Source: Longimicrobiales bacterium
GTDB taxonomy: Bacteria > Gemmatimonadota > Gemmatimonadetes > Longimicrobiales > Gaopeijiaceae
Assembly: GCA_965203485.1 (NCBI GenBank)
Contig: OZ241892.1
Location: 2,112,001-2,176,000, forward strand
Length of the DNA: 64,000 bases
Reading direction: 5' to 3'
Shown here: positions 7,732-23,241 of the stretch, one piece after another
Numbering within the stretch: the first letter of the stretch is position 1
Layout: each line of letters begins with the position of its first letter
The notes under the pieces: generated by a model
Database searches by the model: none
What the model was told of the DNA's origin: nothing
The model's input: only the letters and a program-made list of their open reading frames with translations
Translations under genes and position numbers: made by a program

Positions 7732-10062
7732 TCACGCCGCGTCGTCGTCCGCCGGCTTCCGCAGAGCCGCGGGGCCGCCGCCATCGCCGATCCCTGCGCC
7801 TGCCGCCGCGAGTCCGCCGCCGTCGGTGCCCGCTGCCCCGGGGCCGCCATCGCCGTCGGGCGTCCCGCCCGGCAGGTCCGCGTGCCGGAAGCTCTCCCGG
7901 CGCTCGACCGACACCACGCCCTTCACCCGCTTCACCGCTTCCATCACCTTGCGCAAGTGGCTGAGATTCTGCACTTCCACGACGAACGCGGCCTTCATGC
8001 CCCCGTCGGTGGCGCGCATGTCCGCGTGCTGGATGTCGGTGGCGGTTTCGGTGATCGTCTTGGCAACGTCGCTCAGCAACCCGCGCCGGTCCGTTCCCTC
8101 CATGTGAAGGTGGACGAAGAAGCGGTCGTCGCGCTCCGCCTTCCATTCGATCTCGATCCGCCTGCCGGGATCCCTGTCCAAGGCGTGCGCGTTCGGGCAA
8201 TCGTTGCGGTGAATCGAGATGCCTCTTCCGCGCGTGACGTAGCCGATCACGTCGTCGCCGGGCACCGGCTGGCAACACTGCGAATAGCGGACCATCAAGT
8301 CGCCCATCCCCTGAATCGTCACGCTGTCGTTCGACTTGCGGATCTTCTCGGCGATGCGCTCCAAGGCGGACGGCGACCGCTTGACGACGACCGCGGGATC
8401 CTCGCCGGGGAAGAAGGCCCGGATGACGGCCGAAGGCCCGATGCTTCCCCGCGCCAGCGCGGCTAGGGTCTCGTCGAAGTCGGAGAATCCCAGGTCCTTC
8501 GCGACGCGCGCCCGCTCGCCTTCGCCGGGCTTGGGCCGGCGGGCGCGCCGAAGCTCCCGCTGAAACAGCTCGCGTCCCAAGCGCAGCGCCTGGTCGAATT
8601 CCTCCCGCCGGATCCACTGGCGAATCCGCTGGCGCGCGCGCGCGGTCTTGACGATCGCCATCCAGTCCCGCGTCGGCTTCTGCCGCGGACTGGTGATGAT
8701 CTCCACCGAGTCTCCGTTCTTCAGTTCACGCGACAGCGGCGCGATCCGCCCGTTGACCTTGGCGCCGGCGCAGTGCAATCCGACTTCGGTGTGCACCGAG
8801 AACGCGAAGTCCAGCGGCGACGCCCCCACGGGCAGCTGCTTCACCTCTCCCTTCGGCGTGAACACGAATATCTCGCCGTGGAACAGGTCCATGTGAAGGA
8901 ACTCCATGAACTCCTCGGGCTCGCTGGCGTCCTTCTGCCACTCCAGGACTTGGCGCAGCCACGTGAGCGCCTCGTCCACACCGGTGCCTTTGCCGTCCTC
9001 CTTGTAGAGCCAGTGGGCCGCGATGCCGTGCTCGGCGGTGCGATGCATTTCGCTCGTGCGAATCTGGATTTCGTAGCGGCGCCCGCCCGGCCCGTACACG
9101 GTCGTGTGGATGGACTGGTACATGTTGGACTTGGGCGTGGCCACATAGTCGTGGAAGCGGTCCTGCACCGGCGTCCAGCGGCCGTGGATGACGCCCAGAG
9201 CCGCATAGCACATGCGGATCGACTTGGTGATCACGCGCAACGCCATGAGGTCGTATATCTCGTCGTAGCTTCGGTCCTGCGTGACCATCTTGCGGTGAAT
9301 CGACCACAGGTGCTTGGGCCGTCCCGTCACTTCGGCGGCGACGCCGGCCTCCTCCAGCGCCTCTTCGAGCGGCCGCTGCATCTCGAGGATGTTGCGCTCG
9401 CGCGCGCGCCGCCGTTGCCGCACCAGCTTTCGCAGGTCGCCGTACGCCCTTGCGTCCAGGTGCTTGAAGGCCAAGTCCTCGAGCTCCCACTTGATCGACG
9501 CGATCCCCAGCCTGTGCGCCAGGGGCGCGTATATCTCGCGCGTCTCGCGAGCCACCGCCTCCTGCTTTCCCGGCGGCATGTGGTCGAGCGTGCGCATGTT
9601 GTGCAGCCTGTCGGCCAGCTTGACCAGGATGACGCGAACGTCGCGAGCCATGGAGAGGAGAAGCTTGCGGTAGTTCTCGACCTGCTGCTCGGTGTGCGAG
9701 CGGAACCGAACTCGCCCGATCTTGGTGACGCCGTCGACGATGGCGCCGACTTCCTCGCCGAAGAGCTCGCGAATGCCCTGAAGCGACACCGTCGTGTCTT
9801 CGACGACGTCGTGGACGAGCGCCGAGACCACGGACGCCGTGTCCAGGCGCAGTCCGGCAACGATCGCGGCCACCTCCACGGCATGGCTGACGAAGGGCTC
9901 GCCGGACGCCCGCCGCTGCTCCGAATGGGCCTCCGCGGCGAGTTCGTACGCGGCCAGCACCTCGTCCACGTCGAAGCGGCCCTCCGAGTCCGCCACCGCC
10001 CGGGCGAGCGGCTGCGGGAGCTTGCGGATCGTCCTCGCGCGTTCGGTCGTCGTCGTCGCCAT
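7732..10062 (-). CDS. relA: Long RSH (p)ppGpp synthetase/hydrolase
   Basis: Intact HD hydrolase motif (HDVVED), KLADRLHNMRTL, YQSIHT, EIQIRT, TGS (FVFTPKG), CCQPVPGD and ACT domain. Confidence 0.96.
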   Translation of the reverse strand: MATTTTERARTIRKLPQPLARAVADSEGRFDVDEVLAAYELAAEAHSEQRRASGEPFVSHAVEVAAIVAGLRLDTASVVSALVHDVVEDTTVSLQGIRELFGEEVGAIVDGVTKIGRVRFRSHTEQQVENYRKLLLSMARDVRVILVKLADRLHNMRTLDHMPPGKQEAVARETREIYAPLAHRLGIASIKWELEDLAFKHLDARAYGDLRKLVRQRRRARERNILEMQRPLEEALEEAGVAAEVTGRPKHLWSIHRKMVTQDRSYDEIYDLMALRVITKSIRMCYAALGVIHGRWTPVQDRFHDYVATPKSNMYQSIHTTVYGPGGRRYEIQIRTSEMHRTAEHGIAAHWLYKEDGKGTGVDEALTWLRQVLEWQKDASEPEEFMEFLHMDLFHGEIFVFTPKGEVKQLPVGASPLDFAFSVHTEVGLHCAGAKVNGRIAPLSRELKNGDSVEIITSPRQKPTRDWMAIVKTARARQRIRQWIRREEFDQALRLGRELFQRELRRARRPKPGEGERARVAKDLGFSDFDETLAALARGSIGPSAVIRAFFPGEDPAVVVKRSPSALERIAEKIRKSNDSVTIQGMGDLMVRYSQCCQPVPGDDVIGYVTRGRGISIHRNDCPNAHALDRDPGRRIEIEWKAERDDRFFVHLHMEGTDRRGLLSDVAKTITETATDIQHADMRATDGGMKAAFVVEVQNLSHLRKVMEAVKRVKGVVSVERRESFRHADLPGGTPDGDGGPGAAGTDGGGLAAAGAGIGDGGGPAALRKPADDDAA

Positions 10063-10176: not shown

Positions 10177-11328
10177 CTAGGCCAGCGCTTCGTGGAGCGC
10201 CGCCGCGATCTCGTCGATCTGCTCCTCCGCGACCACCAGCGGAGGCAGCAGGCGAACGACCGTGGCGCCGGCCGAGAGCGCCAGCACGCCCCGTTCCGCC
10301 AGCGCGGCCACGCACGGACCCGCGCGCTCCTTGAGTTCGACGCCGATCATCAGCCCGATCTGGCGCACCTCGCGCACGCGCCTGGACGGCCGGCGGCCGA
10401 AGCGGTCGAGGAACCGGGCGCCCATCGCCTCGGCGCGTTCGGCCAAGCGCTCCCGCTCCATGCAGGAGATGGCGGCCAGGGCGGCCGCGCAGGCCAGCGG
10501 ATTGCCTCCGAAGGTCGTGCCGTGCTTGCCCGGAGCGCACCGCACGCCTTCTCGGCAGAGCAGCGCGCCCATGGGCACTCCGCCCGCGATCCCCTTGGCC
10601 AGGCAAAGCATGTCCGGGACGACGCCCCAGCGCTCGCACGCGAACATCCTTCCCGTGCGGCAGAAGCCCGTCTGCACCTCGTCGAACGCCAGCAGCGCGC
10701 CGACCTCGTCGCAGGCCGCGCGGGCCGCGCGCAGGAACTCGGGGTGCGCGGGCCGCACGCCGCCCTCGCCCTGCACCGGCTCCAGCACGACGGCCGCCAC
10801 CTCGCCGGTCACGGCCGCCCGCAACGCCTCGGCGTCGTTGAACGGCACGAACGAGAAGCCCGGAACGAGCGGGCCGAACCCGTCGCGGTACGCCTTCCTG
10901 TGGGTCGCGCTCAAGGCCCCCATGGTGCGGCCGTGGAAGCCGCGCATGGCCGCGACGACCCGCGCGCGTCCGGTGTGCAGGCGGGCCAGCTTGAGGGCGG
11001 CTTCCACGGCCTCGGCGCCCGAGTTGCAGAGGAAGGCGCGGGCCAGCCCCCGCGGCGCGATCTCGACCAGCTTGCGCAGCAATGCGGCCCTGCGGTCGTT
11101 GCAGAAGATGCCCGCGCAGGCCACCAGCGCGCGCGCCTGGGCGGCCACCGCCTCGGCCACCGCCTCGTTGGCGTGCCCCACGCTGGCCACGCCGACGCCG
11201 GCGACGCAGTCCAAGTACCGGTTTCCCTCTTCGTCCCAGACTTCGGCCCCGGAGCCCCGGACGAGCGCAAGCCCGCGCTTCGCGAAGACATCGAGCCCAA
11301 AGGCCCGCTCCGTCGCGACGGCGTTCAC
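10177..11328 (-). CDS. lysJ: LysW-semialdehyde aminotransferase (LysJ/ArgD, class III PLP)
   Basis: [40 protein letters not shown]; last gene of the lysW operon. Start uncertain (11328 or 11409). Confidence 0.85.
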
Positions 11329-11425
11329 GGGCCGCCGCAGGGAGCCGGGGGGCTCGCGAAGCCGCCGCGCCCCCGCGCTGCGCCCGTCTGACCGCAGGCG
11401 GCCCGGCACCTGCGAATCTCGGCGC

Positions 11426-12238
11426 TCACGAGATCACCGTGCCCCCGCCGGCAAGCACGTCCCGAACCGGGCGCGCGGCCCGGCCGTCGCCCAGGACGAT
11501 GCGCGCCCCGGTCGATTCCGCCAAGACGCGCAACGCGCGCATCTTGCGCTTCATCCGCCCCTTGGCCTGCTCCTCCCGGCCCGCCAGCTCGGCGCGCGTC
11601 ATTCGCTGGACCACGGACGCCGGATCGCTCGGGTCGTCCAGGAAGCCCGGCGCCTCGATCAGCTGGACCACGCAGTCCACCTCGAGCGCCTTGCCCAGCA
11701 GCGCGACGACATCGTCGTTCTCGGAGTTGACCGCGTAGCCATTCTCGTCGGCGATCGGAACCGTCAGCACCGGCGCGAACCCGCCTTCCAGCAACAGATC
11801 CAACAAGCGTCTGTTGATCGCCGCGGGCTTGCCGGAGAGGTCGCGCTTGATCAGCGTCTTGCCGCCTTCGCGCACGCGGATTCCCTTGTTGCGCCTCCCC
11901 CGCACGACGGCGCCGTCCAGGCCCGTGAGCCCCACGGCGGCGACGCCCCTCACCTGCAGGAGCTCGACCAGCCGCTTGTTGCGAAGACCCGCGTACGTCA
12001 TCAGCATGAGGTCGATCGTCTCGGCGTCCGTGTATACGCTCTCGTAGCCGGAGACCGACGTCAGCGCTTGCTTCTCGATGCCCAGGCGCCGTCCCAGCGA
12101 GTCGCGCAACGCGTTGGCGCCGTGCACGACGACGAAGCGTTCCTGCAGCTCGGACAGGTCCGACGCGATCCCCTCGAGGTTGATCGACTCGCCCCCGCCG
12201 ACCTTCACTAGAATCACCGGCGGGCCCGTGCCGGTCAC
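11426..12238 (-). CDS. lysZ: [LysW]-aminoadipate/glutamate kinase
   Basis: [37 protein letters not shown] 12238 overlaps the upstream stop. Confidence 0.9.
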
Positions 12239-12876
12239 AGCGCGATCACGGCGCCGTCGGGAACCCGCGTCCATTCCTCGGCGCTCCCCGGATAGCGTTG
12301 CGAGCAGATCACTTGCGCGGCTCCGAGTCGGGCGCGCCTCATTTGGAAGTAGTCCGGCGACTCGCTGAACCGGCTGGCCGCGTAGACACCGCCGGACGCG
12401 TCGGCGACGATCATGTTCATGGCGCGGACGTGCCGGGTGCGCCTCTCGATGGCCGCGACGCCGCGCCGAAGAGCCGCCGAGAAGTCGTCCCGCCCGAAGC
12501 GCTTGACGAAGTTGAACACCTTCTCGGCGCCGATCCGTCCGCGCTCCCGGATGCGCACGCCGCGCAATTCGCCGTTGAAGACGAACACGCGCTCGCCGTC
12601 GAAGAAGGGCATGTTGTTCTCCAGCCGGATCCCTTCGTTGCGAAACGCGCTGCGGGCGTGGGCGACGAGCAGGGTCGCGCGCCCGGGGGGACGGTACGGG
12701 TCCTCCCACACGGGCGCGAGGCAACGGTAGACGCACCAGCGGCCCTCGTTCAGCCAAGCGCAGCCCCAACCGTGGCCTTGATACTCGCGGCTCTCCTTGG
12801 CGATGCGGGCGAAGGCGGCGAGATGCCCCTCCATGTCGAAGCCCTCCGCTTCGCGAACGCACAGCATGCGGCACAT
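12235..12876 (-). CDS. Ntn-hydrolase, class II glutamine amidotransferase-like (EgtC/Dug3/YafJ-type)
   Basis: Met-Cys2 start (MCRML), HGWG, AHARSA, NNMPF, FVFNG motifs. Confidence 0.8.
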   Translation of the reverse strand: MCRMLCVREAEGFDMEGHLAAFARIAKESREYQGHGWGCAWLNEGRWCVYRCLAPVWEDPYRPPGRATLLVAHARSAFRNEGIRLENNMPFFDGERVFVFNGELRGVRIRERGRIGAEKVFNFVKRFGRDDFSAALRRGVAAIERRTRHVRAMNMIVADASGGVYAASRFSESPDYFQMRRARLGAAQVICSQRYPGSAEEWTRVPDGAVIAL

Positions 12877-12886
12877 GCCCGGGACG

Positions 12887-13912
12887 TCAGACGGGGTGGA
12901 GGCCCGCGAACTCCAGGCCCGTGGTCTCGGGGAACCCGTGCATGACGTTGAACGCCTGCACGGCTTGCCCGGCGGCGCCCTTCATCAGATTGTCCAGCGC
13001 GCTGACCACGACGACCCGGTTGGTGCGGGGGTCGCGTTCGAAGCCCACGTCGCAGAAGTTGGCGCCGGCGAGAAGCTTCGGCTCCGGGTAGCGGTGGACG
13101 CCGCCGCGCTCCTTGACGATGCGGACGAACGGCTCGGTCCCGTAGGCGTCGCGGTAGAGCCGCCAGAGCGCTCGGTCGTCCATGTCCCGGTTCACGAAGA
13201 CGTGGCAGGTCGCGAGCACGCCGCGGACCATCTCGACGGCGGTGGCGGAGACGTGGACGTCGTCGAGCCCCAAGGACTGCGCGATCTCGCCGGTGTGGCG
13301 GTGCCCGGTGGGCTTGTAGGACCGCAGGGCCCCGCTGCGCTCGGGGTGGTGGCTGGCGTCGGTGGCCACGCGTCCCGCTTCGCTCGAACCGACCTTGACG
13401 TCGATCACGGCGCGGTCGGCCAGCCCCTCGCGGCACAGCGGCAGAAGCGCGAGCACGGCGGCGGTGGCGTTGCATCCGGCGCACGCCACGAGTTCCGCTT
13501 CCGGCAGGGCGTCCCTGTGCAGCTCGGCGACGCCTCCCGTGAACTGGTCCAGGAGTTCAGGCCGGGGGTGTCGCTCCCCGTACCAACGCTCGTAGGCGCC
13601 GGGAGAGGCCAAGCGAAAGTCGGCGCCCAGATCGACGACGCGGCCGGCGACCCGGCGGACTTCGTCGATCCGGCGCGAACTCTCGCCGTGCGGCAAGCAC
13701 AGAAACAGCACGTCGCACGGGTCGATCTCGTCGGCGGCGGAGAACTTGAGCCCGGAGGCGCCCCGAAGGTTCGGGTGGGCGCCGTGCGCGAACCGGCCGG
13801 CGAGGCGGTTGGACGTGACCTGCTGCACGCGCGCTTCCGGATGGCCCAGCAACAGCCGCAGCAGCTCTCCGCCCACGTAGCCCGAGGCCCCGGCGATGGA
13901 AACGCCGATCAT
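12887..13912 (-). CDS. lysY: [LysW]-phosphate reductase (LysY/ArgC)
   Basis: GASGYVGGE, DLGADFRL, catalytic GCNAT, SHHPERSG, HRHTGEI, DNLMKGAAGQAVQ. Confidence 0.92.
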   Translation of the reverse strand: MIGVSIAGASGYVGGELLRLLLGHPEARVQQVTSNRLAGRFAHGAHPNLRGASGLKFSAADEIDPCDVLFLCLPHGESSRRIDEVRRVAGRVVDLGADFRLASPGAYERWYGERHPRPELLDQFTGGVAELHRDALPEAELVACAGCNATAAVLALLPLCREGLADRAVIDVKVGSSEAGRVATDASHHPERSGALRSYKPTGHRHTGEIAQSLGLDDVHVSATAVEMVRGVLATCHVFVNRDMDDRALWRLYRDAYGTEPFVRIVKERGGVHRYPEPKLLAGANFCDVGFERDPRTNRVVVVSALDNLMKGAAGQAVQAFNVMHGFPETTGLEFAGLHPV

Positions 13913-13943
13913 CCCGCTCGCGCCAAGTCGGACGCCCCGCCGC

Positions 13944-14780
13944 TCACGGCGCCTGCGCCAGCGCGTAGGACGCGATCTCGGCGGGGATGTTCACGCCGGT
14001 GACGTCGACGCTGTTCCTGAATTCCATCGTGTAGTTGACTTCGTTGGCGAGCAGTTCGCCGTCCCTCTCCAGCAGATCGACCGCCAGCACGCCGCCGCCC
14101 ACGGCCGCCGCGGCCTGAATGGAGACGGCTCCGATCTCGGCGGTCACCGGACAGTTGGAGGTCCGCCCGCCCCGCGCCGTATTGGTGATCCAGTGGTCGG
14201 ACGCGCGGTAGACCGCCGCGACGCACTCGTCGCCCACCACGAAGCTGCGGATGTCGCGCCCCCGCTTCCTCACGTACTCCTGCACGAAGAAGATCGAGTG
14301 ATGGTAGGTCCCCAAGACCGCCTTGTGCTCGAGCACCGTCTCCGCCGCATCGCGGTCGTTGATCTTGGAAAGCAGCCGCCCCCAGGAGCCGACCGCCGGC
14401 TTCAGCACTACCGGATACCCGAGCTCTTCGATCGCCCGGAGCGCCGACTCCGGCGTGAACGCCACCCGCCACCTCGGCTGCGGGACGCCGGCCTCCGCCA
14501 GGGCCGTGGCCGTCAGGATCTTGTCGCCGCATCGTCGCGCCACGTCGTAGCGGTTGACGCAACGCGCACCCACGCTCTCGAACAGGCGCAGCGCATGCAT
14601 CGCCCGCGAGTGGTTGATGCAGCGCTCGAGCACCAGATCGAAGTCCGGCGGCGAGCCCAGTCCGAAGACCAGCCGCCGGTCGTCCAAGCGCACCAGCTCG
14701 ACGCCCGGGCGGCCCTTCAGCTCGGCAAGGATGAGCTTCTCGTCCTTGCGGATCAGCGAATGCAGGAAGCCGACCCTCAC
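13944..14780 (-). CDS. lysX: LysX ATP-grasp ligase (RimK family)
   Basis: [30 protein letters not shown] (the LysX-type signature), [14 protein letters not shown] start at 14780. Confidence 0.92.
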
Positions 14781-14874
14781 GCGGCCGCCTCCGGGCCGAC
14801 GGCCGCCCGCCCCAGTCCTCCCCGGCAAGGAGCGCCGCCGCGCCGCCGGGCGAAGCACGCGCCAGTCCCGGCGG

Positions 14875-15039
14875 TCACTCGCCCCAGTCCTCTTCCGCGT
14901 CGGGGGCTTCGGCCAGCGCCGGCGGGTCGAGCGAAAGAACCTCCAGCTCGCATCCGCACTCCGGGCATTCGAGGAGCTCGCCCTCCACCGCGTCTTGCTC
15001 CAGTTGGACCTGCGCTCCGCACACCGGACATTCCGCCAT
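14875..15039 (-). CDS. lysW: Amino-group carrier protein LysW (54 aa)
   Basis: Missed by the ORF track. [54 protein letters not shown]: two CxxC and the terminal EDWGE; AGGAGAGG RBS upstream. Confidence 0.97.
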
Positions 15040-15223: not shown

Positions 15224-16390
15224 ATGGCCACGGTACGGCCGAACATGAAGAACGATTTTCATCCCTGCACCTTCGCGTCGCCCTTCCTGTGGATGCGCCT
15301 CGTCTGGGAAAACGGCGGCATTCCGCGCCGGTACTGGCGGAAATTCGCGGGCATCCTTGCTTGGTCCGCGCCGTTGGCCCCGTTGCGGCTGGCCGAGTGG
15401 TTGGCGTTCTCGCGGAAGATCGCCAGGACGCCCGTCGACGAGCCGCCGCTCTTCGTCCTGGGCTTCCCGCGCACCGGCTCGACGCACTTGCAGAACTTGC
15501 TCGCCCAGGATCCGCGCTGGGGCTGCTTCACGACCTTTCAGTGCGTGACGGCGCCGTTCTCGTTCGTGGCGCGCGGCCGCCTCAGGCGGCTGATGGAGAA
15601 GGCTATGGCGGCCGCCGGCGAGCAGACCCGGCCGATGGACAACGTCAAGATCACGCTGGACTCGCCGCAGGAGGAGGACGTCGCCGTCGCCGCCATGTCG
15701 CGGCTGTCGGCCGTGCACCAGCTGGCGTTCCCCAAGCGGGGTCGGGAGCTGCTGGCCAAGTACGTGATGATGGGCGCAGGGCCGGACGGGTCTCCCAACG
15801 GCAGCCTGTCGGCGCGAGAGCTACGCCAGTGGGAGCGCGTCTACGTCCGCGAGGTGCGAAAGGTGGTCCTCCACTCCGGCGGCAAGCCCCCGATGCTGCG
15901 CAACACGCTCAACATCGCCCGCTCCGACCACCTGTCGCGCCTCTTCCCGGGCGCCAAGTTCCTCCACATCGTCCGCAATCCGTACGCCGTCTACCCCTCG
16001 GTGCTGCACCTCGCGCGCACGCTGCTGCCGCTGTACCAGCTCGACGACTACGACTGGGACGAAGTGGAGCAGCACTGGATCGACGGGTACAAGCTCCTGA
16101 TGTCCAAGTACATGCGAGACCGCGAGCAGATTCCGGACGGCCACTTCGCCGAGGTGCGCTACGAGGACTTGGACCGCGATCCGCTGGGCGAGCTCGGGCG
16201 GGTGTACGAGGAGCTGGAGCTGCCCGGCTGGCGCGTCGCCCGCGAACGCATCGAGGCGTACCTGGAGACGCTGTCGGGCTACCGCAAGAACCGCTTCACG
16301 CTGCCGCAAGCGACGATCGACCGCATAAGCGACGAATGGGGGTTCGCGGTGGACGCCTGGGCCTACGAGCCGCCGGCGGCGGACGGATGA
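15224..16390 (+). CDS. PAPS-dependent sulfotransferase, Stf3 (Rv2267c)-like
   Basis: 5'-PSB loop [16 protein letters not shown], 3'-[25 protein letters not shown]. Start may be 15245. Confidence 0.88.
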
Positions 16391-16418: not shown

Positions 16419-18401
16419 GTGCTGAGGTTCGCCGAGGAGTTGCTGCTCCTCCTCATCGACGAGGACTCCGGCAACTTGGCGCTCGTGCCCGAGCGCGACT
16501 TGAACCACGCGCTGGCCGGCGCCGCGCTCATGGACCTGGCGCACGAGAACCGGATCGACACGGACCTGCAGCAGCTGACGGTGGTCGATCCCGCGCCGCT
16601 GGGCGACGACGTGCTGGACCCGGTGCTGGCCCGCTTGGCGAAGAGCGCCGAGCCGCGCGCGCCCGAGTACTGGGTGCGGCGCTTCGCGCAGGACGGCGAG
16701 CGCATCCGGGCGTCGTCCCTGCAGCGGCTGGTCGAGGCCGGGATCCTGCGTTCCGCCGACGAGGGCGCGATCGAGACGACGACCAAGGTGGCACGAGCAA
16801 GACGCTACCCGACAGCGGACGGCAAGGCGGAGCAGGAGGTGCGCCTGCGCATCATGGGCGTGCTCTTCAGCGACGACGTGCCCGGGCCCCGCGACGTGGT
16901 GATCATCTGCTTGGCCGACGCCTGCGGCGTCTTCGAGGGCATGCTCGCCAAGGAGGAGCTCGCCGAGGCGCGGGAGCGCATCGATCTGGTGCGCCGTCTC
17001 GACCTGATCGGCCAAGCCGTGACCCGGGCCGTGCGCGATTCCGAGGCGGAGGCCAAGGAGACCCGTCGCCCCCCCCGGTCGAAGAAGCCGCCGATGGCCA
17101 AGGGCCTGCCGTTTGTCGGCAACGTCCGCGAAGCGTCGATCGACTTGGTGCGCTTCCTGGCCGCGCAGCACTTGGAGCTCGGCCCCGTGTTCGAGGTTCG
17201 CATTCTTCGCAGGACGCTTCTCGTGCTGGCGGGCGAGGAAGCGAACCGCTTCGTGAACCGCCAGGGACGGCGCTGCTTCAGCTCGCGAGGGCCGTTTCAG
17301 GGCCTTGCCGAGGGCCTCAATGCGCACAGGATCGTGCTGAACATGGAGGGGCAGGAGCACTTCGCGATCCGCAAGGCGTTCGCCCCTGCGCTGGGCCGCG
17401 CCCGGTTCAACCAGTGCTTCGACTTGGCCAGCGAAGTCGCCCACCGGCAAGTCGTCGCCCTGCCGGTGGGCACGCCCCTGCATCCCTTGCCGTTCCTGCA
17501 GCAGGTCGTCGCCGAGCAGATGGGAAGGATTCTGGCGAACCGGTCGGCCTCCGAACAGGTCGAGGACATGGCGACGATGCTCGACATCCTGTTGAAGACC
17601 AAGGTGACCAAGCAGCTGCCGATGCTGCCCTTCGCGCGCAAGTTCAAGAAGGCGAGCGAGCGCGTGGAGACCGTTGCCCAAGAAATCCTCGATGCCCACG
17701 GGCCGGACGGGCCGCTGCACGACTGCGGCGACTTCATCAGCGACTTGATCGACCTGAACCGCCGGGACCCGCAACTCATACCCGAGACCGACATGAGGGC
17801 CTGGGCGATCGCTCCCTATCTCGCGGGACTGGAGACCGTGGCCAACACTTGCGCCTTCAACCTATACGCCGTGCTGAAGCACCCGGAGCTGAAGGAACGA
17901 GTCGTCGCGGAAGCCGACGCGTTCTTCTCCGGCGAGCCCGCGGCCGAGGGATTGGCGCAACTGGACGTCACGCGTCGCCTGATCATGGAATCGATGCGCA
18001 TGTGGCCGGCGGCCCCGGTGCTCTTCCGGGTCGCGGCCAACTCCTTCGACTTCGCTGGCTACCACGTGCGTGCGGGCACGCCCATGTTCCTTCCGCAGGC
18101 GGCGACCCACCACTTGCCCGAGAACTTCCCCGATCCCGGGCGCTTCGACATCGACCGGTACCTGCCGGACCGCTCCGAGCACCGGCAACCGAATGCCTAC
18201 GTCCCCTACGGCGTAGGCACGCACCGTTGCCTGGGCGCCAGCTTCGCCGATCTCCAGACAATGCTCATCCTGGCCGTCATGATGCGCGCGGCGGACATGG
18301 AGCTCTACCCGCGCGGCTACGATCTCAAGGTGAGCAACGTGCCGACGCCGAGGCCCGCGAAGAACTTCAAGGTCAGGGTGACGAGGCGGCGGGAGGCGTA
18401 A
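16419..18401 (+). CDS. GPP34 (GOLPH3/Vps74-like) domain fused to cytochrome P450
   Basis: Residues ~1-210: AEELLLLLIDEDSG..ALAGAALMDLA..RI..D.VLD..L..LVEAGIL (GPP34-like). Remainder: I-helix AGLETVA, ExxR (ESMR), FDIDRY, heme ligand PYGVGTHRCLG. Confidence 0.85.
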   Translation: MLRFAEELLLLLIDEDSGNLALVPERDLNHALAGAALMDLAHENRIDTDLQQLTVVDPAPLGDDVLDPVLARLAKSAEPRAPEYWVRRFAQDGERIRASSLQRLVEAGILRSADEGAIETTTKVARARRYPTADGKAEQEVRLRIMGVLFSDDVPGPRDVVIICLADACGVFEGMLAKEELAEARERIDLVRRLDLIGQAVTRAVRDSEAEAKETRRPPRSKKPPMAKGLPFVGNVREASIDLVRFLAAQHLELGPVFEVRILRRTLLVLAGEEANRFVNRQGRRCFSSRGPFQGLAEGLNAHRIVLNMEGQEHFAIRKAFAPALGRARFNQCFDLASEVAHRQVVALPVGTPLHPLPFLQQVVAEQMGRILANRSASEQVEDMATMLDILLKTKVTKQLPMLPFARKFKKASERVETVAQEILDAHGPDGPLHDCGDFISDLIDLNRRDPQLIPETDMRAWAIAPYLAGLETVANTCAFNLYAVLKHPELKERVVAEADAFFSGEPAAEGLAQLDVTRRLIMESMRMWPAAPVLFRVAANSFDFAGYHVRAGTPMFLPQAATHHLPENFPDPGRFDIDRYLPDRSEHRQPNAYVPYGVGTHRCLGASFADLQTMLILAVMMRAADMELYPRGYDLKVSNVPTPRPAKNFKVRVTRRREA

Positions 18402-18452: not shown

Positions 18453-19235
18453 TTGACCGCTCTCGCCAGCCTGACGCCCAGTTCCGCCCTGCGGCGCGCC
18501 GGGTTCCGATTCGGGGATCGCGGAACCCAGTCGAGCCGCAACACGATGCTGGGCGAGTTGCGCGTGCTGTTCGACGCGCTTTCGCCCGACGCAAGCCGCA
18601 CGGACTATGCCGATGCGATGGTTGGCGAAAACGTGTTGGGCAAGCCGACCCTGGCCGCCCGGCGGAGCGTCCGCCAGCGTCTGACCGAGCTGTACGGCCT
18701 GGACCCGAGCCTGCCGTTGTTCCGCGTGTTGCGGCGGCTGTGGGACGCGGACCCGCCGGGACGGCCGCTCCTGGCCATGCTCTGCGCGCTGGCCCGGGAC
18801 CCGTTGTTGCGCTTGACCGCGCCGCCGGTGCTCGGACTGGCCCAAGGGAAGCCGTTGGAGCGATCGGCATTTCTGGCGCACGTCCGGGAAGTGGCCGGTT
18901 CGCGATTCAACGACGCGGTGCTGGCCAAGGTGGCGGCGAACGCGATCCGCTCCTGGCAACTGGCCGGACATTTGAGCGGACGCGCGGGACATCGCACGAG
19001 GCAGATGATCCAGCCCACGCCCGGCGCCGCTGCGTTCGCCTTGTGGATGGGTCAGGCGGAGGGGCTGGCGGGGCTTCCGCTGCTGGACTGCCGGTGGGCG
19101 CCGGTGTTGGACGTTCGGGGCAAGGCTATGCTTGTATGGGCGGTGGAGGCGGGCAGACGGGGGCTGATTCACGTTCGAGCGGCGGGAGACGTCGTGGAAA
19201 TCGACACCACGAAGCTGGACGCGTACGCGCCGTGA
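18453..19235 (+). CDS. brxA: BrxA-like protein, first gene of BREX locus
   Basis: Position before brxB/brxC with GTGA overlap; ENVLGKPT..R..RLTELYGLD pattern of BREX first genes. TTG start uncertain. Confidence 0.6.
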   Translation: MTALASLTPSSALRRAGFRFGDRGTQSSRNTMLGELRVLFDALSPDASRTDYADAMVGENVLGKPTLAARRSVRQRLTELYGLDPSLPLFRVLRRLWDADPPGRPLLAMLCALARDPLLRLTAPPVLGLAQGKPLERSAFLAHVREVAGSRFNDAVLAKVAANAIRSWQLAGHLSGRAGHRTRQMIQPTPGAAAFALWMGQAEGLAGLPLLDCRWAPVLDVRGKAMLVWAVEAGRRGLIHVRAAGDVVEIDTTKLDAYAP

Positions 19236-19783
19236 GCCAGGTCCGCGACTTGGCCGCGGTCTACAAGCGGCACGTGAGCGCGCCGTGGCCGCGCACGCTC
19301 GCAGGCGCGCAACGCGTAATGATGATCGTGTATCCCAAGGACCGCGAGCGGGCGTTGCGGGCGGCCGTCGGCGAATTCGAGCAAGCCACGGAGGGCGCGG
19401 GCCACGGATGGCGGCTTGTCGATTGCACCGATTGGTTCGCCGAGTGGATGGCTGGGCACGAGTACCGAGAACCGTACTTCGAGGAACCGGAGCTGCTGGA
19501 CGACGCATTGCTGGACCAGGAGTTCCGCAAGGTCGCGTCGGCCCGCTTGGAGAGCGCCTTGAAGGGCGCCGGCGAGAAGACGGTCGTCGGGCTCGTCGGC
19601 GTGGCATCGCTGTACGGCTTCGTGCGCGTGTCGAAGCTGATCCACGACGTCGAGCGGTCCATCGAGGGACGCTTGGCCGTCTTCTTTCCCGGCAGCAAGG
19701 ACGGGAACAACTATCGCCTGCTGGACGCCCGGGACGGCTGGAACTACTTGGCCCAGCCGATCACGCTGGAGGGATGGCCATGA
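19232..19783 (+). CDS. brxB: BrxB (DUF1788 family)
   Basis: GRLAVFFPG..NNYRLLDARDGWNYLA C-terminus; overlaps both neighbours. Confidence 0.85.
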   Translation: MSQVRDLAAVYKRHVSAPWPRTLAGAQRVMMIVYPKDRERALRAAVGEFEQATEGAGHGWRLVDCTDWFAEWMAGHEYREPYFEEPELLDDALLDQEFRKVASARLESALKGAGEKTVVGLVGVASLYGFVRVSKLIHDVERSIEGRLAVFFPGSKDGNNYRLLDARDGWNYLAQPITLEGWP

Positions 19784-22700
19784 GCTCCCCGAAGATCTTC
19801 GAGCTGATGGAACGCGATCCGCGCTCCGAGCAGCTGGCCAACAACGGCCAAGCGCGAATCGCCGGCGACAGCGACGACGAACGCGTGGAACTTCGAGCCG
19901 AGCTGGAGTCCTTCGTGTGCTGCGGCAAGTTCGCCGACGCGTTCGAGACGGTCCTGGACAGGTACTTGGCGAACCTGGGCGCCGCGTCCCGGCAGGACTC
20001 GGTCTGGGTGAGCGGCTTCTTCGGCAGCGGCAAGTCCCACTTGCTGAAGATGCTCGCTCACCTCTGGGCGAACACGCGCTTCGACGACGGCGCGGCGGCC
20101 CGGTCGCTGGTGCCGGGCGGATTGCCTTCGCGCATCCAGGAACAGCTTCGCGAGCTGGAGGTGCAGGCAAAGCGAACTGGCGGCCCGACCGTCGCCGCGG
20201 CCGGCACCATGCTCAGCGGCGCCGCCGACCGGGTTCGGCTGGCGGTTCTGGCCGTCATCCTGCGAGCCCGCGAATGGCCCGAGGACTACGCCCAAGCTCG
20301 GTTCTGCTTCTGGTTGCGCGACGAGGGGCTGCTGGACGATGTCCGGAGCGCAGTGGAGGACGCCGGCAAGGACTGGGGCCGCGAACTCGCCAATCTATAC
20401 GTGAGTCCGGTCGTCGCGGACGCCTTGATCAGGGCGCGCCCCGACTTCGCTGCGGACGCGAGGGCGGCCAAGCAACTGCTGCGCGCGCAATTCGCCCGCC
20501 CGGCAACCGACATCGGAACGGCCGACTTCGTGGCCATGGCCAAGCAGGCGCTCGGGGACCCCGGCGGCCCGCTCCCCCTCGCGATTCTCGTGCTGGACGA
20601 AGTGCAGCAGTACATCGGCGACTCCAGCGACCACGCCGTGGCGGTCACCGAGGTCGCGGAGGCCGTCCAGACCCAGTTCAACGGCCGGTTGCTGCTCGTG
20701 GCGGCGGGCCAGTCCGCGCTCGAAGGGCACCCCTCGCTCCAGTGGCTGAGAGATCGCTTCCGAATCACCGTTCAGCTCTCGGACGCCGAAGTCGAAGAGG
20801 TCACCCGCGAAGTGTTGTTGCGAAAGAAGCCCAGCGCCGCCGCGCCGATCGAGCGCATGTTCGAGGAGCACGCCGGCGAGGTGTCGCGCCAGCTGCAGGG
20901 CACCAAGCTCGGCGTTTCGAGCGAGGACCAGGGCGCCGACGTCGCCGACTATCCCCTCCTTCGAACCCGCCGCCGGTTTTGGGAGGCCTGCTTCCGAGCC
21001 GTGGCCGGCACGCACAGCGAGCTCCGTTCGCAACTGCGCATCCTGCACGACTCGCTGCAACGGATCGCCGACCGAGGCTTGGGGGCGGTCATTCCCGCCA
21101 GCGACCTGTTCGGCGCCCTGACGACCGACTTGGTGAACTCGGGCGTGCTGCTCAACGAAATCGCCACCCGCATCGCCACGCTCGACGACGACACCGACGA
21201 CGGCCGACTTCGACACAACCTTGCCGGGGTCGCCTTCCTCGTCGGCAAGCTGCCCCGCGAGCGCGCCGTGGACCTCGGAGTCCGCGCCGACGCGCGCACG
21301 CTGGCGGACCTGCTCGTCGACGACGTCGCGGCGGACTCCGGCGTCTTCCGCAAGCGCGTGCAGGACGCCTTGGACGCGATGGCGCAGCAAGGCGTCCTGT
21401 TGAAGGTCGCCGACGAGTACCGCATCCAGACCACCGCGGGCGCCGAGTGGGAACGGGCGCTTCGAGAGAGGCGCACTGCCCTCGAACGGGACGAAGGGCA
21501 CATTTCGCTGACGCGCCAAAGTCTGCTGTCCGGAGCCGTCGGCGCCTTGGTCGCGCAGATTCGCTTGCCGCACGGCGAGTCCAAGACCAATCGCAAGCTG
21601 GTCCTCCAAGTCGACACGCTGGGCGAAGACGCGCCCGGCGACACCATTCCCGTGTTGCTCCGCGACGAGTGGTCGTGCAGCGAGCAGGAAGCGAAGAACG
21701 ATGCCCGAAGGCGTGGCATGGAGGATCCGGTCCTGCACGTCTTCCTGCCCAAGCGCAACGCCGACGACCTGCGCCGCCGCATCGTCGAAACCGAAGCGGC
21801 CCGGCAAGTGCTGGACGAGAAGGGCCGCCAGTCCTCGGCGGAAGGCCGCGAAGCGCGCGACGCCATGAAGAGCCGCCGTGCCGGCGCGGAGGCCCGCCGC
21901 GACCACCTCGTCCAGATCACGCTCGCGTCCGCCCGCGTGCTCCAAGGCGGAGGAACCGAGGTCTTTGCCGGAGGCGACCTGAAGGCCAAGATCGAGCACG
22001 GCGCGAAGGCGTCGCTGGCTCGCTTGTTCCCCCGCTTCCCAGAGGCCGACCACCGAGCCTGGGGCGTTGCCCTGAAGCGAGCGCAGGAGGGGTCCGACAC
22101 GCCGTTTCAGGCCGTGGACTGGGACGGTCCGCTAGCCCGCCATCCGGTGGCCAAGGAAGCGCTCGCCGCAGTTGCGACGGGCAGGCGAGGCAACGAGGTC
22201 CGCAAGGCGTTGGCGCGGCCTCCGTTCGGTTGGCCCCGAGACGCCGTGGACGCGGCCTTGGTCGCGCTTCACGGTCTCGGCCAGCTGGCGGCCACCCGCA
22301 ACGGCGCACCTGTGCGGCGCCTGGACCAGACGGGAATCGCGACGACCGTGTTCCGCCCCGAAACGGTCGTCCTCGACGCCAGCCAGCGGATTGCGTTGCG
22401 GGGGCTCTTCCAAAAGGCGGGCGTGGCCTCCCGATCCGGCGAGGAGACGGTAGGAGCCCGGCAGTTCCTCGACGCCTTGCGGACGCTGGCCGCAAAGGCC
22501 GGGGGCGACGCGCCGTTGCCCGCCCCGCCCGACACGGCGTTGCTCGACGAGATTGGTCGGCTGGACGGCAACGAGCAACTGGCCGAGCTCTTCGAGGCGC
22601 GAGAGGGGCTGATCGCGGACATCGAGCAGTGGGAGGGACTCGCCCGGCGTGCTCGGACGCGGACGCCCGCTTGGGACATGGCCGTCGCGCTTCGCCGACA

Positions 22701-23241
22701 CGCTACCGGACTGCCGATCGCGGAGGACGTCGGCGCCGAACTCGACGCCATCGCCGAACGGCGGTCGCTGTTGGACGAGATGGACCCCGTGTCGCCGTGC
22801 GTCGCAAAGCTGGCCAAGGCGCTTCGCGAGGCGCTGGGCAAGGCGCGGGACGGATTGGCCGAGGCCGTCGCCGACGCCACCGCCCGGCTCGACGCCGACC
22901 GTGCCTGGTCCGAGTTGGACGACGCAGATCGCGCGGCCATATTGTCGGATGTCGCCTTGGCCACCCCCGTACCGCTCGCCGTAGAGACCGACCCGGCGTT
23001 GCGGCGGGAACTGGACAGGCGCAACTTCGCCGCTTGGCGCGCGGAGACCGACGCCGTCTCGTCCCGAGAAGCCGAGGCGCTGGAAGCGGCAACGGCCCGT
23101 CACGGAGAAGGCAACGTACCCGTCGCGGTCGCTGTCCGCCGAGCCACTCTCGCGAACGAGACCGACGTGCGCCGCTGGCTCGACGAGCACGAGACGAAGC
23201 TGATGGAGGCGGTCAAGAAAGGAACGGTGGTGGTGAAATGA
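19780..23241 (+). CDS. brxC: BREX P-loop ATPase BrxC
   Basis: WVSGFFGSGKSH Walker A, LVLDEVQQY Walker B, DYPLL, PPFGWPRDAVD; ATG 19780. Confidence 0.92.
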   Translation: MSSPKIFELMERDPRSEQLANNGQARIAGDSDDERVELRAELESFVCCGKFADAFETVLDRYLANLGAASRQDSVWVSGFFGSGKSHLLKMLAHLWANTRFDDGAAARSLVPGGLPSRIQEQLRELEVQAKRTGGPTVAAAGTMLSGAADRVRLAVLAVILRAREWPEDYAQARFCFWLRDEGLLDDVRSAVEDAGKDWGRELANLYVSPVVADALIRARPDFAADARAAKQLLRAQFARPATDIGTADFVAMAKQALGDPGGPLPLAILVLDEVQQYIGDSSDHAVAVTEVAEAVQTQFNGRLLLVAAGQSALEGHPSLQWLRDRFRITVQLSDAEVEEVTREVLLRKKPSAAAPIERMFEEHAGEVSRQLQGTKLGVSSEDQGADVADYPLLRTRRRFWEACFRAVAGTHSELRSQLRILHDSLQRIADRGLGAVIPASDLFGALTTDLVNSGVLLNEIATRIATLDDDTDDGRLRHNLAGVAFLVGKLPRERAVDLGVRADARTLADLLVDDVAADSGVFRKRVQDALDAMAQQGVLLKVADEYRIQTTAGAEWERALRERRTALERDEGHISLTRQSLLSGAVGALVAQIRLPHGESKTNRKLVLQVDTLGEDAPGDTIPVLLRDEWSCSEQEAKNDARRRGMEDPVLHVFLPKRNADDLRRRIVETEAARQVLDEKGRQSSAEGREARDAMKSRRAGAEARRDHLVQITLASARVLQGGGTEVFAGGDLKAKIEHGAKASLARLFPRFPEADHRAWGVALKRAQEGSDTPFQAVDWDGPLARHPVAKEALAAVATGRRGNEVRKALARPPFGWPRDAVDAALVALHGLGQLAATRNGAPVRRLDQTGIATTVFRPETVVLDASQRIALRGLFQKAGVASRSGEETVGARQFLDALRTLAAKAGGDAPLPAPPDTALLDEIGRLDGNEQLAELFEAREGLIADIEQWEGLARRARTRTPAWDMAVALRRHATGLPIAEDVGAELDAIAERRSLLDEMDPVSPCVAKLAKALREALGKARDGLAEAVADATARLDADRAWSELDDADRAAILSDVALATPVPLAVETDPALRRELDRRNFAAWRAETDAVSSREAEALEAATARHGEGNVPVAVAVRRATLANETDVRRWLDEHETKLMEAVKKGTVVVK

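Follow-up and report, generated by a model that had tools for sequence, protein, structure and literature searches.

A gene inside a LysW operon of a Longimicrobiales bacterium (Gemmatimonadota; assembly GCA_965203485.1, contig OZ241892.1) probably encodes the enzyme that completes the LysW pathway in place of LysK. The window analysed is a stretch of 64,000 nucleotides of this contig (positions 2,112,001 to 2,176,000 of the forward strand; positions are counted within it unless stated otherwise), and the gene, here called N, lies at 12235-12876 between lysY and lysZ. From sequence and modelling, we put at roughly 0.85 the probability that N performs the last step of the pathway, hydrolysis of the gamma-amide of the carrier's terminal Glu, with lysine as the probable product. 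An earlier note, made from the sequence alone, had proposed that N is a non-orthologous replacement of LysK, and this proposal is supported by the mutual exclusion of the two genes, the occurrence of N in the terminal position of lysK, an N-terminal nucleophile (Ntn) fold with invariant active-site residues, a distinctive glycine (Gly116), and a predicted complex with the tail of LysW.

Operon organization and conservation

Coordinates and family matches confirmed the layout described in the earlier note, in which the genes follow the order W-X-Y-N-Z-J, then relA/spoT, without an M20 peptidase gene (Table 1). The six operon genes contain zero internal stops and have a G+C content at third codon positions of 0.78-0.93. 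The Met-Cys start of N, its start codon 10 bp past the lysY stop and its overlap with lysZ (4 nt, N TGA with lysZ GTG) likewise hold in the sequence. The components of a LysW pathway are present, namely a carrier with Zn-ribbon cysteines and a C-terminal EDWGE, LysX, LysZ, LysY and LysJ; the EDWGE motif is described in the accessible part of PMC10433800. LysJ reaches 459 bits against the Thermus LysJ model NF042418, under its cut-off of 700.

The occurrence of N in homologous lysW operons, raised as a check in the earlier note, was borne out in related GTDB loci, of which the best 80 of 148, many of them close kin, were kept. The order lysY-N-lysZ is found in 80/80 of these loci, which also contain lysJ (79), lysX (78) and lysW (76) and come from Gemmatimonadota, Acidobacteriota, Pseudomonadota and Myxococcota; the nearest named relatives are Longimicrobiales, at 77-78% identity. 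No M20/LysK gene was detected in flanks of up to 7 kb. Because all 80 loci keep the Y-N-Z arrangement without M20/LysK nearby, it is not a matter of chance. Clustering of neighbouring open reading frames (ORFs) yielded no further conserved operon member in close relatives. In five metagenomic loci and at least two genomes (L274, L278), the order is W-X-Y-Z-J-N, with N after lysJ, the place of lysK in LysK-type operons. One locus (L027) has a lysW frame without the EDWGE end, apparently through a frameshift or assembly error.

Mutual exclusion of N and LysK

The source genome, a single contig estimated at 95% completeness, contains 10 M20 matches and no LysK (TIGR01902), the best match reaching 64.5 bits against a cut-off of 163.1; the same search exceeds the cut-off in 4/14 control genomes. 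N itself has no M20 match in family scans. Exclusivity of the two genes, which the earlier note had suggested checking, was examined in samples of 201 genomes from the same phylum, 301 from Acidobacteriota and 167 from a third phylum; five genomes flagged as unpublished (G055, G095, G155, G180, G402) are counted within the first two sets. LysX over cut-off occurs in 19 of the 201 genomes. In seventeen of these, the source genome included, the operon contains N and no LysK exceeds the cut-off; the other two (G037, G091) possess LysK and no N match. Strong matches to the N profile (E < 1e-50) fall in exactly those 17 genomes; 15 of the other 182 give weak matches, none of them above 48 bits. In Acidobacteriota, N was found in 18 genomes, LysK in 12, and both in none. 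Among 16 Acidobacteriota N regions fetched, 13 lie among lys genes, two on very short contigs, and one (L286) has no lys neighbours. The third phylum shows strong N matches in 24 genomes and LysK in none. N and LysK thus exclude each other in two phyla, no genome with both having been found there, and in 50 genomes with N, spread over four phyla (50 of the 80 loci), LysK never exceeds the cut-off. ArgE-like M20 matches in two genomes (G188, G146) were considered as LysW release enzymes and rejected, as they adjoin canonical argB and not the LysW operon.

Fold and active site of N

N has no Pfam match and scores 35.4 bits against the EgtC family TIGR03442, far under the cut-off of 218.65. A single-sequence PDB search returned only EgtC at E 0.25, and profile and fold searches were required. 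The predicted model, built from a 77-sequence alignment, has a mean predicted local distance difference test score (pLDDT) of 97.2 and a predicted template modelling score of 0.93. It adopts the Ntn sandwich fold, with EgtC (4zfj) as best structural match (Z 26.1, root-mean-square deviation 1.9 over 198 residues, 20% identity), followed by the glutaminase domains of GlmS (Z 22.6) and PurF; a Foldseek search gave E 2.8e-12. Residues C2, R3, Q33, H73, R75, N101, G102, G113 and G116 are kept in 96/96 locus copies, and 80/97 full-length representatives begin with Met-Cys. GlmS binds glutamate via Cys1, Arg73, Asn98, Gly99 and Asp123, according to the accessible text of PMC9280312. In the N family, the candidate carboxylate-binding Arg75 and oxyanion Asn101 are invariant and Gly102 nearly so, with roles assigned from GlmS. 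Its sequence and predicted model place N among the class-II Ntn proteins, as a divergent form distinct from EgtC, and outside the LysK family.

The equivalent of the remaining GlmS residue is where N departs from its structural relatives. We take GlmS Asp123 to bind the alpha-amino group and to belong to the T-D-S/T-E motif. N lacks this Asp and has the invariant Gly116 in its place, the G-x-T-D-S-E of 3mdn aligning to G-x-I-G-A-E-K with Gly116 opposite Asp. This loss would be expected if the amino group of the glutamate sits in a peptide bond, as it does in the last residue of LysW. The Gly form follows the operon link: all 11 strong homologs fetched from the third phylum (of 24) adjoin lysJ, with Gly present in the 10 for which the motif was displayed, whereas TDSE is retained in 11/11 weaker paralogs examined (nine from the third phylum, two from Acidobacteriota), none of which has a lysW, lysX, lysY or lysZ neighbour; one has a class-III aminotransferase nearby. 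The paralogs at L305-L313, L289 and L290 make up a sister subfamily of free-standing Ntn proteins with a Met-Cys start, which keeps TDSE and shows no link to lys genes. N is also basic (isoelectric point 9.7), a character reported for carrier-binding enzymes in the portion of PMC11726168 consulted.

Predicted complex with LysW and proposed mechanism

Modelling of the LysW complex, suggested in the earlier note, was carried out with residues 2-213 of N and placed the tail of LysW at the active site of N. The score was 0.67 (median of 0.67, 0.49 and 0.72) and the best of three controls 0.09; the mark for such scores, which is only roughly valid with custom alignments, is reached by 116/157 solved and 2/215 mismatched pairs. 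The runs have at least 69% of contacts in common, with a partner pLDDT of 80 or more. The predicted interface comprises N residues 2, 75-78, 100-111, 115-120 and 145-148 and LysW residues 49-54 and 16-23, with the EDWGE tail at Cys2/Arg75/Gly116, and Gly116 and Lys119 against LysW Trp52/Gly53. No solved Ntn-LysW complex was seen in the PDB searches made.

These features could be combined in the following mechanism. Removal of Met1 would expose Cys2, which would attack the gamma-carbonyl of LysW Glu54 while Arg75 grips its alpha-carboxylate and Asn101/Gly102 form the oxyanion hole. A gamma-glutamyl thioester would arise, lysine would depart, and water would restore LysW. Gly116, in the position of the family Asp, would leave room for the peptide chain leading into Gly53/Trp52. 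LysK acts as a carboxypeptidase that reads the product side of the bond; N would instead recognise the carrier side. The same chemistry could convert a Gln-ended LysW to the active Glu form.

The ordinary alternative is that N is a glutaminase or small gamma-glutamyl-amide hydrolase of the EgtC/Dug3 type, supplying for instance glutamate or ammonia and not acting on LysW. The closest structures are indeed EgtC and the GlmS glutaminase domain, and database names of N homologs, where not simply hypothetical, are the generic 'class II glutamine amidotransferase'. Such a role is very improbable in view of the specific loss of the TDSE Asp in the operon-linked clade and the predicted placement of the LysW tail in the active site; moreover, by established pathway chemistry, the LysW steps need no glutamine-derived ammonia.

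Relation to known enzymes

N would occupy the same pathway slot, and cut the same bond, as the LysK/ArgE-type [LysW]-lysine hydrolase (M20; TIGR01902) of Thermus, Sulfolobus and haloarchaea. The two differ in fold and chemistry, LysK being a metallo-carboxypeptidase and N a predicted Ntn enzyme with a cysteine nucleophile, and they never occur together in the genomes searched. With EgtC (4zfj, 4zfk, 4zfl; TIGR03442), N has in common the stand-alone Ntn class-II fold, the N-terminal Cys and the H/x-x-R and N-G motifs, and the gamma-glutamyl amide hydrolysis carried out by EgtC is the chemistry predicted for N. N is unlike EgtC in its low identity (about 20%), its LysW-operon setting, the Gly in place of the TDSE-motif Asp and its predicted substrate, a protein C-terminus. 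The ergothioneine gene context of EgtC is not seen at the 80 loci, where N is adjoined by lysY and lysZ throughout (egt genes were not searched genome-wide). The class II glutaminase domains of GlmS and PurF (1xff, 1ao0) and the uncharacterised stand-alone proteins 3mdn and 1te5 resemble N in fold (Z 17.6-22.6) and in the catalytic Cys, Arg and Asn-Gly set. In contrast to GlmS and PurF, N (213 aa) has no synthase domain, and G-x-T-D-S-E is kept in 3mdn and 1te5 and not in N. The LysWXZYJK pathway of Thermus thermophilus agrees with the window operon in the EDWGE-ended LysW, a near-identical LysX signature, LysZ, LysY and LysJ; the window operon differs in the lack of LysK and in its gene order, and many related operons encode a Gln-ended carrier.

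Gln-ended LysW carriers

The source LysW ends in Glu, whereas 4/93 LysW copies of related loci end in EDWGQ-stop. Gln-ended LysW genes in N-type operons were noted in L083, L086, L099, L106 and L142-L260. A metagenome scan for such ends, using the pattern A-P-x-x-E-E before DWGQ (built from mostly N-type carriers) and covering 30/64 parts of the collection, gave 119 loci, of which 118 were Gln-ended LysW; flanks were fetched for 80/119. All 32 Gln-ended loci that reach lysZ contain N, with one more carrying a partial N, and none contains a whole LysK. Eighty-five Gln-ended loci showed no N, and apart from L220 these stop short of lysZ. In Acidobacteriota, the carrier ends in Gln in 8/11 N-type and 0/9 LysK-type operons. 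A LysX+LysY tree of 54 operons, used solely for the interleaving of Glu and Gln ends (quick LG+G4, one long-branch join, no outgroup), shows the two mixed among N-type operons, with at least six changes forced by well-supported branches, and Glu in all 10 LysK-type rows. N is also retained in many operons with Glu-ended LysW, including the source operon.

That bacterial Gln-ended LysWs track N suggests that N also deamidates those carriers, and the pattern fits an enzyme hydrolysing any gamma-amide at the LysW terminus, which would make Gln tolerable; we regard the chances of this additional uncapping role as evenly balanced. In its broadest form, the proposal would make N an undescribed family of LysW C-terminal gamma-amidases that combines lysine release with Gln uncapping, LysW being a deamidation-activated pro-carrier in many bacteria and a single Asp-to-Gly change having converted the fold of a small-molecule glutaminase into an isopeptidase for protein tails; the odds of this wider scheme seem about even. 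The Pup/Dop system offers a loose analogy for a deamidation-activated pro-carrier.

Alternative readings and the identity of the product

A number of observations weigh against N as the lysine-releasing enzyme. The genomes are kin and largely metagenome-assembled, so that the counts suggest more independence than there is and a gene may be missing through an incomplete assembly; Fisher statistics computed on such counts carry little weight. The N of L286 (a 9-kb Acidobacteriota region) stands apart from any lys gene, and other M20 peptidases of the source genome might release the product. The link with Gln-ended carriers is not universal, and the pattern A-P-x-x-E-E-DWGQ may miss others. GapMind 2026, in its accessible portion, predicts LysK in Nitrosopumilus (PMC13759103), and L220 (4226-4656) holds a Gln-ended lysW with a 22-residue remnant of the LysK C-terminus and no lysX, lysY, lysZ, lysJ or N, which looks like a deleted operon. 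On the biosynthetic side, the source genome encodes ArgF and ArgG with no ArgB or ArgC besides LysZ and LysY, it has no homocitrate synthase over cut-off, and LysA occurs in 29/31 N-carrying genomes tested.

The earlier note had also entertained proofreading of mis-loaded LysW. As a sole role this is unlikely, because N-carrying genomes are without LysK to perform release. A broader version holds that N only maintains the carrier, by deamidating Gln-ended LysW or stripping mis-loaded Glu or alpha-aminoadipate, while a general M20 peptidase frees the product; it can draw on the ten M20 matches of the source genome and on the tracking of Gln-ended carriers with N. It leaves unexplained the exclusion with lysK and the location of N in the lysK position, as well as the retention of N beside Glu-ended carriers, and is judged improbable.

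Another possibility concerns the product released by N, which may be ornithine (ArgW-like use), alone or together with lysine. The arginine genes, LysA and the lack of a homocitrate synthase over cut-off listed above favour this, and the consulted part of PMC12998189 shows that LysW-Glu is a substrate for both LysZ and LysY, and that Glu is loaded, though weakly, by wild-type LysX. Ornithine was at one stage the best reading, given LysA and the lack of ArgB, and was dropped on the distribution of ArgB, the lack of DapB, the homocitrate-synthase-like genes and the LysX signature; it is now considered rather unlikely. A separate canonical ArgB occurs in 13/31 N-carrying genomes, and ArgB is missing in 5/8 LysX-negative relatives, so its absence is common without LysW. 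At least 17 N-type loci contain a homocitrate-synthase-like gene, which in some of them stands between lysW and lysX; no DapB was found in the source genome. The accessible text of PMC12998189 gives the five-residue LysX signature as F-I-T-NS for the Thermus enzyme and I-Y-V-GF for ArgX; by comparison with T. thermophilus LysX, the source LysX has F-V-T-NS, and 95/95 copies have F-I/V-T-NS.

Candidate upstream enzymes in the source genome comprise a LeuA/homocitrate-synthase-like gene, a HacA-like aconitase and three Iso_dh-family genes. The first encodes a 415-aa protein (G000:C1:2056874-2057944; L122:6794-8038) under all cut-offs, with homocitrate synthase 6ktq as best PDB match. None of these candidates is diagnostic, because the synthase is widespread in relatives with or without LysW. 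LysA (diaminopimelate decarboxylase) is intact in the source genome (G000:C1:1633168-1634382) despite the lack of a detected DapB, possibly for diaminopimelate salvage. Marine Gammaproteobacteria (L077, L079, L086, L089; Pseudomonadota) hold the LysW-N operon together with canonical ArgB and LysA; the operon looks redundant there and possibly serves aminoadipate salvage after horizontal transfer. On balance, lysine is fairly likely to be the product and, on sequence grounds, likelier than ornithine; the operon may also serve both.

Features of the window

Table 1. Genes of the LysW-N operon and neighbouring features (window positions).
Feature	Position	Strand	Remarks
lysW, amino-group carrier protein	14875-15039	minus	54 aa, Zn ribbon, C-terminal EDWGE; PF21344 66.7 bits; TIGR01206 68.6, cut-off 53.2
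lysX, ATP-grasp ligase	13944-14780	minus	TIGR02144 325, cut-off 275.6; specificity signature F-V-T-NS (LysX/aminoadipate-like)
lysY/argC-type reductase	12887-13912	minus	TIGR01850 372, cut-off 233.6
N, predicted free-standing Ntn cysteine hydrolase of the class-II-amidotransferase type; proposed release enzyme for LysW	12235-12876	minus	213 aa, Met-Cys-Arg start; Cys2, Arg75, Asn101-Gly102, G113-x-I-G116-A-E-K119
lysZ, [LysW]-aminoadipate kinase	11426-12238	minus	NF010659 231, cut-off 223
lysJ, class-III aminotransferase	10177-11328	minus	PF00202; TIGR00707 (argD subfamily) 427.7, cut-off 410; start position inferred
relA/spoT	7732-10062	minus	after lysJ
Sulfotransferase-family gene	15224-16390	plus	divergent from lysW; not kept beside the operon in relatives
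Long P450-like ORF	16419-18401		after the sulfotransferase gene; likeness from sequence reading only
ORFs presumably resembling a BREX-type defence locus	18453-23241	plus	

Implications

Searches of the open literature yielded no description of an Ntn enzyme that takes the place of LysK; subscription papers, which hold much of the primary LysW work, and bioRxiv supplements lay outside the search, so a prior description is possible. The accessible parts of GapMind 2026 (PMC13759103) and its supplements mention no such enzyme, and the LysW/ArgW pathways in the open literature, as far as the portions consulted extend, all end with an M20 metallopeptidase. If the assignment of N is true, a cysteine Ntn replacement of this enzyme would represent a clean non-orthologous displacement, and a functional name would become available for a family comprising roughly 3,100 sequence clusters (E <= 1e-20, weaker paralogs counted in). 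It would also close a false gap in the lysine pathway of Gemmatimonadota, Acidobacteriota, some Pseudomonadota, Myxococcota and other mostly uncultured lineages, and would explain, in a way open to experimental test, how Gln-ended LysW carriers of bacteria are able to function. An enzyme cleaving amides at a protein C-terminal gamma-glutamyl group could, in addition, become a tool for carrier-based biosynthesis.

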